Source: a virus (Duplodnaviria; Caudoviricetes). Taken from it: DNA of 38,251 nucleotides. Positions 17,009-32,437 of the stretch are shown piece by piece. The stretch spans positions 1 to 38,251 of IMG/VR virus record IMGVR_UViG_3300032305_000289. One strand, 5' to 3'. Position numbers and translations under genes: made by a program. Within the stretch, counting starts at the first letter, position 1. Every line of letters begins with the position of its first letter. The notes beneath the pieces are model-generated. The model searched no databases and was not told where the DNA came from. It saw only the letters and a program-made list of their open reading frames with translations.

Positions 17009-17199
17009 GAAGAAAGAAACAAATCGAAGTAATAGACATTCGGGAAGTAAAGTCGGCGGTGATCGACATTAAGGTGGATGACAAGACGTTCAACGCTCTG
17101 GCCGAGGCTGGTAGGATTCATCTTCAGAAGGATAAGAAGGCGTGCTTCGAGTACGCACTGAACAAGGCTTTGCTGGAACTAGCCGAGATGACTAAGTGA
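17005..17199 (+). CDS. Hypothetical protein
   Basis: Start reassigned to ATG 17005 (AAGGA RBS, ATGA overlap). Confidence 0.6.
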   Translation: MRRKKQIEVIDIREVKSAVIDIKVDDKTFNALAEAGRIHLQKDKKACFEYALNKALLELAEMTK

Positions 17200-17768
17200 G
17201 TGAAGCCTTCAAGCAGAAGGTTCTAACCGCCAGCGTGGATCGCTACGTCCTCACGCCTACGCAATGTGTCATGCTGCGCCAGGATGCCGAGGTCATGGGT
17301 ATGAAGCGTGCAACTGTGATGAACAAAGACGGCACAACACGCAAGTCATTTGCAAGAAGCTACTCATCGTGCTGGGTTCCTTTCGCTACACAGTACGAGT
17401 GGATATACAAGGTGATGCGAGAGTTAACAGACAGCATCAATGCCGATGTATGGCGTTTCGACATCCAAGGCATCCAACAGTTGCAGATCCTGCGATACCG
17501 CCCACTACAGAAGTTTAGTTGGCACTATGACGCATTTACTTCCGAGGCTCCAGTGCGGAAGCTGACAGCGGTGGTCAACCTATCTGATCCTAGCGAGTAC
17601 CTGGGCGGTGGGTTGCAAGTTAAGGCTGACTTGATCAACGGAAGGTTTATCCAAGAGCAGGGTGCGGGTACTTGGTTCCCCTCCTACATCGAGCATCGCG
17701 CTCGCGCTCCTATCTTTGGTACACGCTGGGTGTTGGTGGCTTGGTTTACTGGACCAGCTTGGAAGTAA
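17196..17768 (+). CDS. 2OG-Fe(II) oxygenase (prolyl-hydroxylase/PKHD-like)
   Basis: WHYD (HxD), RKLTAVVNLSDPSEY.GG.L, FPSY.EH (distal H), TRWVLVAW. Confidence 0.88.
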   Translation: MSEAFKQKVLTASVDRYVLTPTQCVMLRQDAEVMGMKRATVMNKDGTTRKSFARSYSSCWVPFATQYEWIYKVMRELTDSINADVWRFDIQGIQQLQILRYRPLQKFSWHYDAFTSEAPVRKLTAVVNLSDPSEYLGGGLQVKADLINGRFIQEQGAGTWFPSYIEHRARAPIFGTRWVLVAWFTGPAWK

Positions 17769-18394
17769 TGGCAACGCTCAACGAAAACATTCCAAGCTTC
17801 AAGGCGCTGGTGAAGAAATCATTCTTTACTAAGAACGAAGCAGACAAAGAGTTTTATGGGGTCTATGTGTTTGGCTTGCAGTCTAGCGCTGGAACTATCC
17901 TAACCTTCCACGTTATGACTGACTCTGGGATGCTACGCAGTCGCGTACCTTTGTCGGAGATATACACGCACGAACCAGAAGCCGACATCCCATTCAATTA
18001 CAAGCAGCTTTGGGATTGTTTTAGCGAGAACGTGGCAGTCACAGAGTACAGCTTCTTGGCCTATCATCGCGCACAGATCCTGCTTAGGGATGCGACCAAG
18101 GTGTGGGGTACATACTTGTTTACAGTGGATTGGTTTAACAATCCCTACAGCGATGAGCCATCCGACTACAAGTGCGGTCATGTCTTTGCCGCAGACGAGG
18201 GCTACTTACTCTGTATGCCCAACAACCGCATCTTCTGGCGTGATTCTAATTGGGTGACGAAGAAGCTACCAGACAACCTAAAGCAGTTCCGAGTGGATAC
18301 AGACCTACCCAGCGTAGAGAATCAGAGCGACAAGTGGGTGACGGAGGATACCGATTCCTTTTATTACGACATCCTTAAGAAGGATTCAGAGTGA
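17768..18394 (+). CDS. Phage hypothetical protein
   Basis: Start ATG 17768 (TAATG coupling); 208 aa with QLWDCFS, YLFTVDW, KCGH, PNNRI.W motifs. Confidence 0.7.
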   Translation: MATLNENIPSFKALVKKSFFTKNEADKEFYGVYVFGLQSSAGTILTFHVMTDSGMLRSRVPLSEIYTHEPEADIPFNYKQLWDCFSENVAVTEYSFLAYHRAQILLRDATKVWGTYLFTVDWFNNPYSDEPSDYKCGHVFAADEGYLLCMPNNRIFWRDSNWVTKKLPDNLKQFRVDTDLPSVENQSDKWVTEDTDSFYYDILKKDSE

Positions 18395-18570
18395 ATGTAG
18401 ATACAAAGGCTAGACTTAAATGGTCACGCGATATACTTATCACTGCCAGAGAGAAGCTGGTGCTAGAAAAGAACCGCGCTGATCGTGGAAGATCGGTTGA
18501 CATTATTCAGATAATCACGATGGTGGATGCGGCGGCGTTAATAGCAAAGGAAATACTTGAAAGTGAATGA
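18391..18570 (+). CDS. Small hypothetical protein (not in ORF track)
   Basis: GTG start; MNVDTKARLKWSRDILITAREKL...KEILESE*; its TGA overlaps ATG 18567. Confidence 0.6.
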   Translation: MNVDTKARLKWSRDILITAREKLVLEKNRADRGRSVDIIQIITMVDAAALIAKEILESE

Positions 18571-19468
18571 AAAGACACACCTCGACTTATTCAGTGGGAT
18601 CGGTGGATTTGCCTTGGCAGCAAGGTGGAATGGATATAGAACCCTTGGCTTCTGTGACAACGAACCCTACGCCCAAGCAGTCCTTAAAAAGCACTGGCCA
18701 GACGTGCCGTGCCACAAAGACATCCGCGAAGTACGAGGCGAGCTATACGCAGGAGTCACTCTTCTCACAGGAGGATTCCCTTGCCAGCCATTCAGTGTCG
18801 CTGGGAAGCAAGGAGGCAAGGACGATGACCGCTATCTCTGGCCAGAAATGCTTAGGGTTATACGCGAAGCAAGGCCAACTTGGATCATTGGTGAGAATGT
18901 TGCTGGCATCGTCAACATGGCACTCGACCAAGTGCATACTGACTTGGAAGCAGAAGGCTACGAAGTCGAGTCGATTATTATTCCAGCTTGCGGTGTCGAT
19001 GCGCCGCACAGGAGGAACAGAGTCTGGATTATCGGACGTAACAAAAACAACAATGTGGCCAACGCCGAGAGCTTGCGACCTAGAGGGTGGCGTGAGCAAG
19101 GCAACCAATATGGGGGGGGGATGGTACAGGGAGAATCAAAAGGGAGAAAGGTGGGGAGTCAAGTTGAAGGATGCTGTACATTCTGCGGAGAGGTTATGGC
19201 CAACGCCGAGCAGTCGGGACGGCAAGGGTGGGTACAGGGGGGGGCGAATGAGGAACGGAAAGATCCCCAGGGACACTCTAGATGTTGCTGTACAGCACGA
19301 AGAGAATCAGGGGAAGCAGTCTGGCCAATTGAACCCAGAGTGGGTCGCTTGGCTCATGGGATACCCAACCGAGTGGCTAAATTGCGTGGACTCGGAAATG
19401 CCATCGTCCCGCAAGTCGCGTCAGAAATTATTAGATGCATCAACCAAGTAATGGAGGATAACAAATGA
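18557..19468 (+). CDS. DNA (cytosine-5)-methyltransferase, alpha chain (motifs I-VIII and X)
   Basis: DLFSGIGG (I), GGFPCQPFS (IV), GENV (VI), HRRNRVWII (VIII), LRGLGNAIVPQV (X); no motif IX in this frame. Start TTG 18557 or GTG 18563. Confidence 0.92.
   Translation: MKVNEKTHLDLFSGIGGFALAARWNGYRTLGFCDNEPYAQAVLKKHWPDVPCHKDIREVRGELYAGVTLLTGGFPCQPFSVAGKQGGKDDDRYLWPEMLRVIREARPTWIIGENVAGIVNMALDQVHTDLEAEGYEVESIIIPACGVDAPHRRNRVWIIGRNKNNNVANAESLRPRGWREQGNQYGGGMVQGESKGRKVGSQVEGCCTFCGEVMANAEQSGRQGWVQGGANEERKDPQGHSRCCCTARRESGEAVWPIEPRVGRLAHGIPNRVAKLRGLGNAIVPQVASEIIRCINQVMEDNK
18567..19451 (+). CDS. Overlapping +1-frame C5-MTase beta chain (TRD modules and motif IX)
   Basis: 294-codon open frame nested in alpha; two WPTP...L..AV modules and GQLNPEWVAWLMGYPTEW (motif IX-like); ATGA coupling to the upstream gene. 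Confidence 0.75.
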   Translation: MKRHTSTYSVGSVDLPWQQGGMDIEPLASVTTNPTPKQSLKSTGQTCRATKTSAKYEASYTQESLFSQEDSLASHSVSLGSKEARTMTAISGQKCLGLYAKQGQLGSLVRMLLASSTWHSTKCILTWKQKATKSSRLLFQLAVSMRRTGGTESGLSDVTKTTMWPTPRACDLEGGVSKATNMGGGWYRENQKGERWGVKLKDAVHSAERLWPTPSSRDGKGGYRGGRMRNGKIPRDTLDVAVQHEENQGKQSGQLNPEWVAWLMGYPTEWLNCVDSEMPSSRKSRQKLLDASTK

Positions 19469-19659
19469 ATGTAATTAAAGAATGGATTCTTGTAGGCGCA
19501 GGGCTGGCAATAGGGAGATTATTGGTTGCAGGAGCAGCTTGTATTCTGACTGTGCTAGTTCTGGTTATTTTATACTGGACTTTTTATTGGGTAATGGGGT
19601 TTATAATATGGATGAAAGACAGAAAAAGGAGAAAACAAAATGAAACTATGGATCAATAA
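19465..19659 (+). CDS. Small membrane protein
   Basis: GGAGG RBS; long hydrophobic stretch followed by a basic tail. Confidence 0.65.
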   Translation: MNVIKEWILVGAGLAIGRLLVAGAACILTVLVLVILYWTFYWVMGFIIWMKDRKRRKQNETMDQ

Positions 19660-20746
19660 CACCAACTCAATCCACAAGGTGGATGACAACCTACTTCACA
19701 CTCGCAACACCTACGTAATCCCAGACGAGCTAACTGGTGCGCTCTGGGATGATGCTGTGCCCTGTCCTCATAAGATTAAACCATACGCCAAGGGCAGGGC
19801 AGCAGGCGGAGCTACCGCAGTGTACCGCGCTGGGGCAATCGGGGATGCTGTCATCGCTACCGCATTCGTTAACTACTTGGTGCAGGAGTCGGGAGGAGTG
19901 GTGGATGTTTACGCCCCTGCTCGCAACTTACCGCTGTACGCTGGCATAGGTGCAAAGCTGTTCCCATTACCTTGCACGCTGGAGGCGTGGGATTCGTATG
20001 ATTGTCACTTACCCACCGATGACCTGTTCAGTGGTCAGGTAGGTAATACCAAGCTGGGTACTGGCGGTGGCAACTGCTACCAGCGTATCTACGAGTGGAT
20101 GGGTGTGTGGGATGAGAAGACGATGGCGAAGTATTGCAGGCCGAATCTGTACCTAATTGAACCAGATCACGAAGAGTTAAAGGCGATGGGTAAGTGGCCA
20201 CTGCCAGACCCATACTTCGCTTATCATGTATCTTCGAGTGGACCAACCCGCACCTACCCGCCAGCTATGGGGCAACAGGCAGTGCTGGCATTGCTGGAAG
20301 CTTACCCCAAGCATCACGCCGTTATCATCGGCCTAGACAACGCAAACAATTTTAAGGTGGATCACCCTCGTGTGATTGACTTGTTCAATACGACCAAAGC
20401 TATCCGTTCCTTGTTCCCTGTGGTAGCTAACGCTGACTTTGTGGTGGCTCCAGATAGCTCAGTCAACCATATCGCAGCGGGGTTAGATACGCCGTGCGTG
20501 TCGCTGTGGGGTTCCTACGATCCAGCGGATCGCATGACTTACTATCCCAAGAACGTGTCGATATTCAAACCCGATACTTGCCCACACTCACCTTGCCGTC
20601 CTCATGCTGGCTTGCCACAAGCGAAGTGTAAGGATGCGAGTAATAAAACCCCTCGAACACAATACTGGTGCAATGCTCTACGAAACATTACGGCGGAAGA
20701 TATTGTTGTTGCATCGCGCAAGGCGATGGAGCTAGAACCGAAGTAA
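19640..20746 (+). CDS. Glycosyltransferase, GT-B fold (GT9 heptosyltransferase-like)
   Basis: R.GAIGDAVI, ADFVVAPDSSVNHIAAGLDTPCVSLWG, C..SPC near C-terminus. Confidence 0.85.
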   Translation: MKLWINNTNSIHKVDDNLLHTRNTYVIPDELTGALWDDAVPCPHKIKPYAKGRAAGGATAVYRAGAIGDAVIATAFVNYLVQESGGVVDVYAPARNLPLYAGIGAKLFPLPCTLEAWDSYDCHLPTDDLFSGQVGNTKLGTGGGNCYQRIYEWMGVWDEKTMAKYCRPNLYLIEPDHEELKAMGKWPLPDPYFAYHVSSSGPTRTYPPAMGQQAVLALLEAYPKHHAVIIGLDNANNFKVDHPRVIDLFNTTKAIRSLFPVVANADFVVAPDSSVNHIAAGLDTPCVSLWGSYDPADRMTYYPKNVSIFKPDTCPHSPCRPHAGLPQAKCKDASNKTPRTQYWCNALRNITAEDIVVASRKAMELEPK

Positions 20747-30033: not shown

Positions 30034-31910
30034 ACGCTAAAGATACACGCAGGAATGATTATTACACACGGATTATTGACTCGCTCAACCAGCGTGAGAC
30101 TTGGGAGAATCGCCAACGGCTGTTCTACCAAGCTCGCTATTTTGGTGTTAGGCGCAAGATTAAGCCTTGGCCGACAGCAGCAGACCTACACGTTCAGTTA
30201 ATTGACTCTGCTATCGAGAGGTTAAAACCTTCCTTCGTCAATAGCGCAATTGGTAACGACATCCTTTCCAGCTTCGTTCCTATGCGCCAGCAGTTGGCTC
30301 CGCTGACAGTATCAGCCGAGCGTTGGTTTGATTACCAGATGCGTGAGCGTACCAACTTCCAGAAGGAGATTGTTTCCGTCATCGACAACATCCTGCTCTA
30401 CGGGCGTGGAGTAGCTAAAGTTATCTGGAACGAGGACAAGAAGCGTATTGACTTCGAGGCAATTGACCCCTTCCACATCATCGTTCCTTCCTACACAAAG
30501 GAGTTTAAAGATGCTGATTTCATTGTTCACATCATCTCAACAAGTGTCGATTCCTATAAGGCGAATCCCTTGTACAAGCAGGGAGACGAGTTCGTTAAAA
30601 TCATTTCGGGTAAACCCTCGAAATCAGTGGGCTTACGAAGTGAGATTCAGGACGAGATTTACAGGCGCGAAGGAATTACTCAAGAAGCTGATAACGATCG
30701 TATTGTCCTTTGGGAAATGTACACGCCCTCAGAAGATGGATGGAAGGTCGAAACCTTCAGTCCTTTGGTTATAGAAGATGACATTCGCAAACCCTTTACG
30801 CTACCTTACCGACATGGTGAACCACCTTTCGTAGATTTCCCCTATGAGGTCACAGGGGGCGGTTGGTATAGCCCTCGCGGAGTTGCAGAGATCCTCCTCC
30901 CTAGCGAGAATCTGTTATGTAAGCTGAAGAATTCGCTCTCAGATTACGTTGAGCTTGCCAACCGACCCGTCTTTGAAGCACAGAATCCTATCTCGCTCAA
31001 TACAGCGAATCTAAAAATGCAGCCTGGCCAGATCCTGCCACAAGGATTAAAGCCAGTTCAATTTAGCCAACCTCCATTTGACTTCCAGAAGTTGATGCTT
31101 GATGAGCGTCAACTTGCTGAACAGCGTATGGGCAACCCAGACTTTGGCGCAGGCTCGCAGTATAACGCTGGTGACAGGAAGACTGCTACCGAGATTCAGG
31201 CGTTGCAGTCGCAGTCAGCCGCCTCTGGCGATCTTCGCAATCGTATGTTTAGGATGGGTCTATCCCACCTATTTAAACAATCTTGGTCACTCTACACGCA
31301 GTACAACAAGAAAGACTTGATGTATCGGTATGCGGAAGAGACAGGTTCAATGCCACCAGACGGCATCCATGATGAGTATTCGATTGAACCAAAGGGCGGA
31401 TTAGACTTTATTAACCGCCAGTTTGCCTTGCAGAAGTCAGTATCGCGGATGCAGATGTTCCAAAACAATCCTTTCATCAACCAGGGAGAACTGGTTAAAT
31501 CAGTCCTTGAACAAGACGATCCATCGCTGGTCCGTAGGCTCTACCAAGATCCTAACGCTGCCTCTGGGGATCAAGCTGAAGATCAAGCGACTGAAATTGC
31601 GACCATGCTCACCACAGGCTTCCCTGTCGCTATCAAGCCTAGCGATGATCACAAGGCGCATATATCCGTTCTCTTTGCGTTTAACCAAGCTGCTCAACAG
31701 CGGCAACAGCAGGTCGATCAGAGCGCAATGCAAGTTCTGATGGCACACTTACAACAGCATTTAGCAGCGTTGGAGAAGATTGATCCCAACACATCCCGCG
31801 CAATTCAAAAACAGCTTCGAGATGCAGGACAAGGCCAGATGCAACAACAGGGGCAACAATTGCCACCTGAAGCGATGCAAGGCCAAGCACCAGCACCGAT
31901 GCCTGCTTGA
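30030..31910 (+). CDS. Portal protein
   Basis: 626 aa after terL; YGRGVAKV, IDPF, YSPRGVAE, KTATEI; Gln-rich barrel-like tail (P22-type). Confidence 0.9.
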   Translation: MNAKDTRRNDYYTRIIDSLNQRETWENRQRLFYQARYFGVRRKIKPWPTAADLHVQLIDSAIERLKPSFVNSAIGNDILSSFVPMRQQLAPLTVSAERWFDYQMRERTNFQKEIVSVIDNILLYGRGVAKVIWNEDKKRIDFEAIDPFHIIVPSYTKEFKDADFIVHIISTSVDSYKANPLYKQGDEFVKIISGKPSKSVGLRSEIQDEIYRREGITQEADNDRIVLWEMYTPSEDGWKVETFSPLVIEDDIRKPFTLPYRHGEPPFVDFPYEVTGGGWYSPRGVAEILLPSENLLCKLKNSLSDYVELANRPVFEAQNPISLNTANLKMQPGQILPQGLKPVQFSQPPFDFQKLMLDERQLAEQRMGNPDFGAGSQYNAGDRKTATEIQALQSQSAASGDLRNRMFRMGLSHLFKQSWSLYTQYNKKDLMYRYAEETGSMPPDGIHDEYSIEPKGGLDFINRQFALQKSVSRMQMFQNNPFINQGELVKSVLEQDDPSLVRRLYQDPNAASGDQAEDQATEIATMLTTGFPVAIKPSDDHKAHISVLFAFNQAAQQRQQQVDQSAMQVLMAHLQQHLAALEKIDPNTSRAIQKQLRDAGQGQMQQQGQQLPPEAMQGQAPAPMPA

Positions 31911-32437
31911 GAGTACCAGTAATGCGAGATGCCTTCCAAGCGGAAGGTTTAACAAAACTGTGTGAGTGGGCGAATGAGGCGGGTGCTAATAATAAGGCGG
32001 TTGAGATTGGGTCTTACAGCGGGGAAGGTACAGTGGTTATTGCTAAACATTTCAAGGAGGTTATGGCGGTTGATCCTTGGATGAATGGGTATGACATTAA
32101 CGATGTGGCAAGCCAGCAATGCCCGATGAAGTTTGTCTTTGAGGCTTTTAAAGAACGCACCGCTCCGCTTGGAAATGTTTTACACAGCAGAAGTAAAAGC
32201 CTAGATGCTTTGCAGTTCTTTAGAGATGACGAGCTAGACTTTATTTACATAGACGGAGATCATCGCTACGAAGGCGTGCTTGCAGACTTGAATGGATGGA
32301 AGCCCAAGCTTAGGGCTGGCGGGATAATGGCTGGGCATGATTGGAGCCTTAAGACTGTCCAAAAGGCTTTGGTTGAGGTATTTAAGGATAAGGAAGCAGT
32401 TATATTTCAAGGGGATTCATGGGGTATAAAGCTATGA
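31907..32437 (+). CDS. Class I SAM-dependent methyltransferase (Methyltransf_24-like)
   Basis: VEIGSYSGEGT, VDPW, DFIYIDGDHRYEGV, GGIMAGHD. Confidence 0.88.
   Translation: MRVPVMRDAFQAEGLTKLCEWANEAGANNKAVEIGSYSGEGTVVIAKHFKEVMAVDPWMNGYDINDVASQQCPMKFVFEAFKERTAPLGNVLHSRSKSLDALQFFRDDELDFIYIDGDHRYEGVLADLNGWKPKLRAGGIMAGHDWSLKTVQKALVEVFKDKEAVIFQGDSWGIKL

Follow-up and report, generated by a model that had tools for sequence, protein, structure and literature searches.

Here, we report a C5 DNA methyltransferase gene that is laid out in two almost completely overlapping reading frames of a stretch of phage DNA of 38,251 nt (the window). Both frames are open and conserved, the motifs of the enzyme are split between them, residues of the second chain (beta) are under selection, and the modules carried by this chain are shuffled among relatives. 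Sequence comparison and structure prediction indicate that the product is very probably a two-chain orphan C5 methyltransferase, and probably one that holds its specificity modules on the hidden beta chain. Long overlaps on the same strand in which both frames are essential are thought to be rare in prokaryotes and phages; the one described here spans hundreds of codons and has been preserved in phages and prophages from many phyla. The features of the locus are as follows.

18391-18570, + strand: upstream gene, 59 aa; its TGA stop overlaps the beta ATG
18563-18570, + strand: dual-start cassette (consensus RTGAATGA) with the GTG of alpha at 18563 and the ATG of beta at 18567
18563 (GTG)-19468, or from TTG 18557, + strand: alpha chain, 301 aa (303 from the TTG); catalytic part of the C5 DNA methyltransferase
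18567 (ATG)-19451, + strand: beta chain, 294 aa in the +1 frame, overlapping 885 of alpha's 906 nt; phrog_1008, E 1.4e-33
18567-18760, + strand: N-terminal extension of beta, overlapping alpha motifs I-III; confined to the clade and predicted to lack structure
18578-18610, + strand: alpha motif I (SAM binding), alignment columns 5-15
18770-18796, + strand: alpha motif IV with the catalytic Cys at 18782-18784, columns 69-77; invariant
18884-18901, + strand: alpha motif VI, columns 107-112
18918-18989, + strand: beta core, residues 118-141, between alpha motifs VI and VIII; own selection, predicted hairpin with alpha 134-152
19007-19027, + strand: alpha motif VIII, placed by alignment
19055-19321, + strand: alpha linker, residues 165-252 (about 88-92); open, drifting, predicted disordered, no target-recognition domain
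19056-19196, + strand: beta module 1, 47 aa, type 6, putative target-recognition domain, docked on alpha in the predicted complex
19112-19120, + strand: G9 run in module 1; no G run in the genome is longer, and relatives differ in its length
19197-19328, + strand: beta module 2, 44 aa, type 2, putative target-recognition domain, like a module in coliphage N15
19237-19244, + strand: G8 run in module 2, one G longer in contigs of runs X4 and X8
19322-19468, + strand: alpha C-terminal part, a conserved segment over beta motif IX followed by motif X from 19391; predicted contacts with beta 251-274
19329-19367, + strand: beta motif IX, by profile against a single-chain C5 enzyme; predicted packing on alpha motif X

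An earlier sequence-only reading had described two fully overlapping frames with starts clustered at the stop of the upstream gene, an alpha chain with motifs I, IV, VI, VIII and X but neither motif IX nor a target-recognition domain, and the missing parts, two modules and a motif IX-like segment, in the +1 frame. This description is borne out in every part. The +1 frame runs through 294 codons (18567-19451) with zero stops. The alpha GTG and the beta ATG stand 4 nt apart within the 8-nt cassette, and the beta ATG is ATGA-coupled, since the last TGA of the cassette is the stop of the 59-aa gene, for which a PHROG search yielded no match. The RTGAATG cassette with both starts is common to 33 loci regardless of the upstream gene. 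C5 motifs I, IV, VI, VIII and X are all located in alpha and are invariant or nearly so among 20 relatives; motif IX is absent from alpha and present in beta. A Pfam search of both frames, proposed in the same reading, places PF00145 on alpha residues 9-168 only (E 1.6e-41). Furthermore, alpha matches phrog_363 and aligns with M.HhaI (E 4e-17, alpha residues 8-174). Its linker is predicted to be disordered (AlphaFold pLDDT 23-29) and drifts: at the last module the amino acid difference is 0.66 for alpha versus 0.42 for beta.

The beta chain has no Pfam, NCBIfam or ESM Atlas name but does have a PHROG model (phrog_1008). Searches of PDB sequences with beta and with two beta profiles gave no match. 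Modelled alone, beta reaches a pLDDT of 55.6 and the predicted fold is informative only for a hairpin at residues 124-144; a Foldseek search with this model had no match at E 0.001. When the last module and motif IX are combined in one profile, there is a modest match (E 3.9e-4, probability 35%) to a single-chain C5 enzyme, at its motif IX.

The openness of both frames is beyond chance. When alpha codons 1-160 were shuffled synonymously by uniform resampling, none of 5000 shuffles left the +1 frame open, about 9.3 stops being expected. In the reverse direction, beta was shuffled 2000 times, and an open alpha frame across the linker was preserved in 0.25% of the cases, with about 6 stops expected. 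Compensating assembly frameshifts, which had been named beforehand as a finding that would speak against a second chain, do not occur in contigs from two runs. The X1 contig, from a run that is possibly the source sample, is identical to the window across 18877-19379, and the X2 contig, from an independent study, covers 18973-19417 with 12 substitutions and no gap. An assembly artefact is ruled out by this gap-free coverage of the variable region. Sequencing runs with at least half of the words of the region are labelled freshwater, lake, sediment or plain metagenome, and RNA runs contain 5-12% of these words.

To assess conservation, loci were gathered with alpha alone (33), by beta alignment (80) and by alpha alignment (80 viral and 80 from GTDB). 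For each survey set, the 80 loci most similar to the window protein were taken, and they share ancestry; the counts therefore describe conservation, not prevalence, and are no census of phage C5 enzymes. Among the 160 alpha-selected loci, 23 are duplicates and 5 lack motif X in the stretch, which leaves 132 scorable ones (58 viral, 74 GTDB). Both frames are open from motif IV to motif IX in 125 of them (3 with a variant motif IX); 5 others are frameshifted between motifs VIII and X, 1 has a stop in alpha and 1 a stop in beta. Stops in the +1 frame, which by the sequence-only reading would speak against it if common in homologs, are thus confined to one locus in 132. The +2 frame has a mean of 13.4 stops and is open in none of 221 clean loci. 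In 126 of these 221, a distance of 38 nt separates motif IX from the motif X that follows it. Selection by the last module and motif IX alone gave 79 new loci, 70 of them with the full layout; no single-chain form was found among the 79. The reading as a single ORF was rejected, as motif IX is out of frame with motif X in all 78 loci that hold the latter.

Several loci depart from the standard arrangement. One stop in the alpha linker, with beta intact, was observed in L058, L062, L136 and L283; these stops (three survey loci and L283) may reflect decay, readthrough or a three-piece enzyme, motif X perhaps being supplied otherwise. In L042, L291, L295 and L287 the beta ATG is kept and no alpha ATG or GTG is present within about 15 codons upstream of motif I. 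An HNH-like nuclease gene is located in the +1 frame between motifs IX and X in L157 (2332-2889), L161 (2443-2886) and L064 (1892-2377), while alpha reads through stop-free; the HNH frame of L064 has one stop. These genes are of the same kind as the out-of-frame HNH in the accessible text of PMC11855218.

Judged from sequence matches, the two-frame layout is not a rarity; the window is a member of a very large and mostly half-annotated phage family. A beta profile matches 23,716 clusters at 50% identity (E up to 1e-10), about 7800 IMG/VR stretches are estimated to hold the beta patterns, and 202 of 50,697 GenBank phage records match beta, including N15, K1H, Lc-Nu and Paenibacillus phages. GTDB matches fall in Bacteroidota, Bacillota, Verrucomicrobiota, Acidobacteriota and others. 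The same layout with the same beta core is found in the PHROG 363/1008 pairs, in K1H (ORF29/ORF28), in Paenibacillus phage Tadhana (gp54/gp55) and at N15 gp58, where beta starts after motif III, in contrast to the start at the gene head in the window. The earlier expectation that one-frame gene callers would miss beta was overstated, as some callers and annotators list it (K1H, Paenibacillus phages; 830 called homologs in a protein search), but one of the two frames is usually lost. In N15, alpha is the annotated frame, and in Lacticaseibacillus phage R9.1 a long ORF in the beta frame is listed as hypothetical; the K1H and Tadhana pairs are annotated as two unrelated "methyltransferases". Each enzyme is thus annotated by half, and for much of the phage orphan C5 methyltransferases the frame consulted to predict specificity is the wrong one. 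The accessible text of PMC6070908 and PMC5056774 contains no remark on the overlap.

Selection on beta was analyzed in 134 dereplicated loci in which beta starts after motif III, 85 of them alpha-selected. Over motifs I-III the +1 frame is often interrupted by stops, at one Leu in 67 of 134 loci, but from just before motif IV onward there are none; their absence downstream of motif IV in this set is due to the choice of clean loci, the unbiased figure being the 1 in 132 given above. Between the last +1 stop and motif IV, a beta start is present as ATG in 122 of the 134 loci and as GTG or TTG in 11 more. In the 85 alpha-selected loci, beta residues 118-141 vary less than the alpha residues encoded by the same DNA: a beta Trp is kept in 82 of 85 where alpha has Met, Leu or Val, and a beta Ser in 83 of 85 where alpha has Phe or Leu. 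An invariant alpha Ala uses a single codon in 83 of 84 loci, while four-fold sites over the non-overlapped motifs I-III use all four bases; the third-base entropy at four-fold sites is 1.90 bits over motifs I-III versus 1.57 over motifs IV-VIII (p 0.003). Within the clade of the window, alpha third positions differ by 0.17 in the core versus 0.56 in the neighbouring glycosyltransferase gene, and over motif IX and the last module the pattern of differences fits beta as the coding frame. By these substitution patterns, beta is a selected protein with amino acid selection of its own over alpha motifs VI-VIII, and not a shadow of alpha.

The full-length overlap is a clade trait. In the full-overlap clade about 3 stops would be expected over motifs I-III and none is found in 16 dereplicated members, only 2 of which have an internal ATG; translation of beta in this clade thus seems to begin at the head of the gene, which obliges the frame to remain open throughout. 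The N-terminal extension of beta is less conserved than alpha (0.34 versus 0.15). A quick tree places the window in a 16-row group (support 98), with other fully open frames scattered elsewhere.

Modelling of the alpha-beta complex, also suggested beforehand, predicts that the chains bind. Alpha together with beta residues 60-280 gives a score of 0.89, the best of three controls 0.04. Of 157 solved pairs, 116 attain the mark used, as do 2 of 215 mismatched ones; these counts are rough here because our own alignments lie outside the calibration. At least 70% of contacts agree between runs, and the partner pLDDT is at least 61. In the predicted complex, beta residues 138-141 pair with alpha residues 138-141, which are encoded by the same bases; a structural element was apparently born by overprinting and is predicted to pair with the very strand whose codons it shares. 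Beta motif IX packs on alpha 273-297, and module 1 (residues 161-172 and 200-208) docks on alpha, with module 2 not docked. The high score may owe something to the resemblance of the pair to single-chain C5 enzymes of solved structure. The model speaks for, but does not establish, a need for both chains in activity.

The part of beta that lies between motifs VIII and IX is composed of modules. We counted 532 of them in 214 loci, falling into 201 clusters with a median length of 41 aa and 0-7 per locus; the boundaries are pattern-based and imperfect. Type 6, that of module 1 in the window, occurs as 13 modules in 10 arrangements, and type 2, that of module 2, as 25 modules in 17 arrangements. 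In the closest relative (L036), module 1 is kept and module 2 swapped, and the N15 module that resembles module 2 lies in an unannotated beta. Single-module loci exist for the type of module 1, so this type suffices alone. No module was found in the alpha linker of any of the 221 survey loci. From position, size, shuffling and predicted docking, and by analogy with known enzymes, the modules are likely target-recognition domains. They have no sequence or fold match to known domains of this class in PDB and profile comparisons, and a profile of module and motif IX does not match alpha chains of the EcoHK31I type. If the assignment holds, module type could be mapped to methylated motif at scale (201 types, 214 loci), phage escape from restriction would become predictable, and the family would offer a naturally split, programmable methyltransferase scaffold.

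The closest described precedent, already named in the sequence-only reading, is M.EcoHK31I (E. coli HK31, YGGCCR), an alpha/beta C5 methyltransferase with motifs I-VIII, motif X and the target-recognition domain in alpha and motif IX in beta; both chains are required, and the N-terminal part of beta is reported to drive association (accessible text of PMC2836561 and PMC3404938). We compared it via a near-identical E. coli locus, L280 (309 + 176 aa; found in 81 of 5426 E. coli genomes), whose alpha is 35% identical to that of the window over the N-terminal 157 residues. The precedent stands insofar as beta is wholly nested in the +1 frame of alpha and carries motif IX, with motifs I-VIII and X in alpha. 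It does not extend to target recognition: M.EcoHK31I has its domain in alpha and none of the modules in beta, whereas the window has its modules in beta. Beta begins at alpha codon 104 in L280, covering 57% of the alpha length, versus codon 2 and 98% in the window. L280 also adjoins a cognate nuclease gene, unlike the window, where no restriction nuclease was found beside the gene or among 45 scanned proteins (ORFs up to 35488). As it differs in both the place of the domain and the cognate nuclease, the window enzyme is a variant of the M.EcoHK31I type and not a member of it. The proposal of a heterodimeric orphan methyltransferase with a nearly full-length nested beta is nevertheless supported by conserved frames, motif split and predicted binding. 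On the beta-core profile of the family, the L280 beta scores only 14.4 bits, a shadow-frame control 7.2. Both L280 and the locus of Mycobacterium phage Spikelee gene 77 (L278) have a motif IX overlap in +1 with a beta core unlike that of the window family, and by sequence the two-frame layout is common to at least two beta types. A 318-aa plasmid match first taken as M.EcoHK31I turned out to be a single-chain NgoI-type enzyme and was used as a negative control; it has many +1 stops.

The modules recall the multispecific C5 enzymes of Bacillus phages in their tandem, exchangeable arrangement of about 41 aa each between motifs VIII and IX (two in the window), a likeness of layout, as those enzymes are single chains whereas the window has its module array on a second chain in the other frame. 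Phages phi3T and rho11 also encode such enzymes, the domains of which measure about 40 aa. Those of SPR, H2 and their kin are orphan methyltransferases with tandem target-recognition domains, each responsible for one specificity (accessible text of PMC8936443). A split into two chains with motif IX in the smaller one is likewise seen in M.AquI (CYCGRG), the small chain of which comprises part of the variable region, motif IX and motif X (accessible text of PMC3404938); in the window, by contrast, motif X resides in alpha. Literature searches, mainly of open-access papers, returned no paper on the layout, scale, modules or repeats of the family. The small chain of M.AquI is not known to be nested in the gene of the large one.

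Taken together, the following mechanism is proposed. A single cassette, coupled to the stop of the upstream gene, would provide the starts of both chains at a distance of 4 nt. The overprinted beta core would add a hairpin to the alpha sheet, and beta motif IX would pack on alpha motif X. The target-recognition site may be filled by one module at a time, such that two sequences would be methylated, as in the multispecific enzymes of Bacillus phages. The alpha linker would act as a passive tether that need only stay open to deliver motif X. The enzyme presumably serves to protect the DNA of the phage against restriction by the host. More speculatively, slippage in the two G runs might turn the enzyme off and on.

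Other explanations have to be weighed against a two-chain enzyme with modules in beta. One polypeptide could be made by two programmed frameshifts, from alpha motifs I-VIII by +1 into the modules and motif IX and by -1 into motif X, which would restore the canonical motif order and could use the G runs or AG repeats that some loci hold in the right interval. However, the beta core over motifs VI-VIII is selected as a protein although it would never be translated in such a scheme, beta has a start of its own in 133 of 134 partial-overlap loci, and the alpha linker is open where about 6 stops are expected; moreover, there is no common shift site, as a repeat lies in the interval in only 22 of 221 in-frame loci. 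We consider such frameshifting very improbable. Less probable than any other reading is that beta is a separate regulator or inhibitor, or a mere shadow of alpha conservation. Alpha does indeed impose part of the N-terminal likeness of beta, as an unrelated single-chain enzyme gains 7 bits on the beta profile with its +1 frame, and beta alone folds poorly. Against this speak the lack of motif IX in alpha and its presence in beta at a fixed distance from motif X, the stronger conservation of beta residues over those they overlap, the many +1 stops of the single-chain control and the predicted alpha-beta complex.

A heterodimer might also be monospecific, if the modules are not target-recognition domains or only one of them is functional. 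The missing match to known domains, the docking of module 1 only and the assignment of the M.EcoHK31I domain to alpha would be in line with this. Yet alpha in the window has no ordered or conserved element between motifs VIII and X that could take this role, modules of the 201 types are exchanged as whole units in the interval from motif VIII to motif IX, and the type of module 1 is found in single-module loci. We regard a monospecific heterodimer as unlikely, and the two-chain enzyme with its specificity modules on beta remains the preferred reading.

No other G run in the genome is as long as the G9 and G8 of the two modules. Module 1 is present in 9 distinct contigs, and the first run is in frame in 7, one base short in 1 and one base long in 1; three records of equal length were counted once, and some contigs may stem from the phage of the window itself. 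In the X8 contig, which has low depth, the longer second run is accompanied by a nearby compensating loss. When the best 120 homologs of beta were inspected, 33 proved to be frame-switched, and in 32 of these the switch coincides with a Gly or Arg-Glu run or closely follows one; they belong mostly to one lineage, and gene callers favour such fusions. In 242 loci, 15 long runs fall in 80.5 kb of linker versus 4 in 754 kb of flank. Against slippage it counts that only 4 of 9 frameshifted survey loci have such a run (22 of 221 in-frame loci; p 0.011), that these runs are tolerated since the residues they encode do no harm in any frame, and that assemblies often contain homopolymer errors. Either slip cuts motif IX or motif X off from its start, so the predicted state is off. 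From these patterns we give somewhat less than even chances to a methyltransferase switched by repeat slippage, that is, phase variation, with assembly error as an alternative. Methyltransferases that vary in phase through simple repeats are known from bacteria and belong mostly to types III and I (accessible text of PMC12707154 and PMC13076061). As in those systems, the runs lie inside the coding region, vary in length among close relatives and break the frame; unlike them, the window encodes a phage C5 enzyme, both frames of which move together with a single slip.

A sister lineage of 21 loci, with L286-L298, has a G10-G12 run directly behind motif VIII. Here the same module belongs to beta in L287 and L297 and to alpha in L293, L296 and L298; neither chain is interrupted in these five, whereas broken states are seen in L286 and L289/L290. 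A module in alpha is rare, being absent from all 221 survey loci. The variation in G-run length and the occurrence of a module in either frame are new here. A bolder and more doubtful idea, on which we would not bet, is a two-frame combinatorial contingency locus, in which a de novo overprinted subunit carries shuffled recognition modules, G-run slippage toggles the whole phage methylome and paired indels pass modules from beta to alpha. If true, M.EcoHK31I with its domain in alpha and the window family with its modules in beta would be one design, and tens of thousands of "hypothetical" proteins would form a natural library of methyltransferase specificity modules.

The window represents the whole circular genome of a tailed phage, the first 100 bases recurring at offset 38128. 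PHROG assigns genes for terminase, portal, major head, primase/helicase, RusA and exonuclease. Site counts in this genome reveal strong avoidance, with CCGG at 0 versus 122 expected, ACCGT/ACGGT at 0 versus 37 and CGACG/CGTCG at 0 versus 25, and at least ten 6-bp palindromes are absent. This avoidance points to a host rich in restriction systems and fits the restriction pressure that the proposed protective role presupposes; of the many avoided sites, none is assignable to a module. A second, small methyltransferase-like gene (31907-32437, + strand; phrog_2675, E 5e-17) is located between the portal and head genes. Here and in many loci of the clade, the methyltransferase is followed by a glycosyltransferase of 368 aa resembling GT9/heptosyltransferases (19640-20746, + strand), and a 2OG-Fe(II) oxygenase is encoded at 17196-17768; the two could belong to a DNA- or surface-modification block. 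The upstream genes at 17196-17768 and 17672-18394 overlap by up to 97 nt if a TTG start is used; the true start of the second is probably later, since its PHROG match begins at residue 33.
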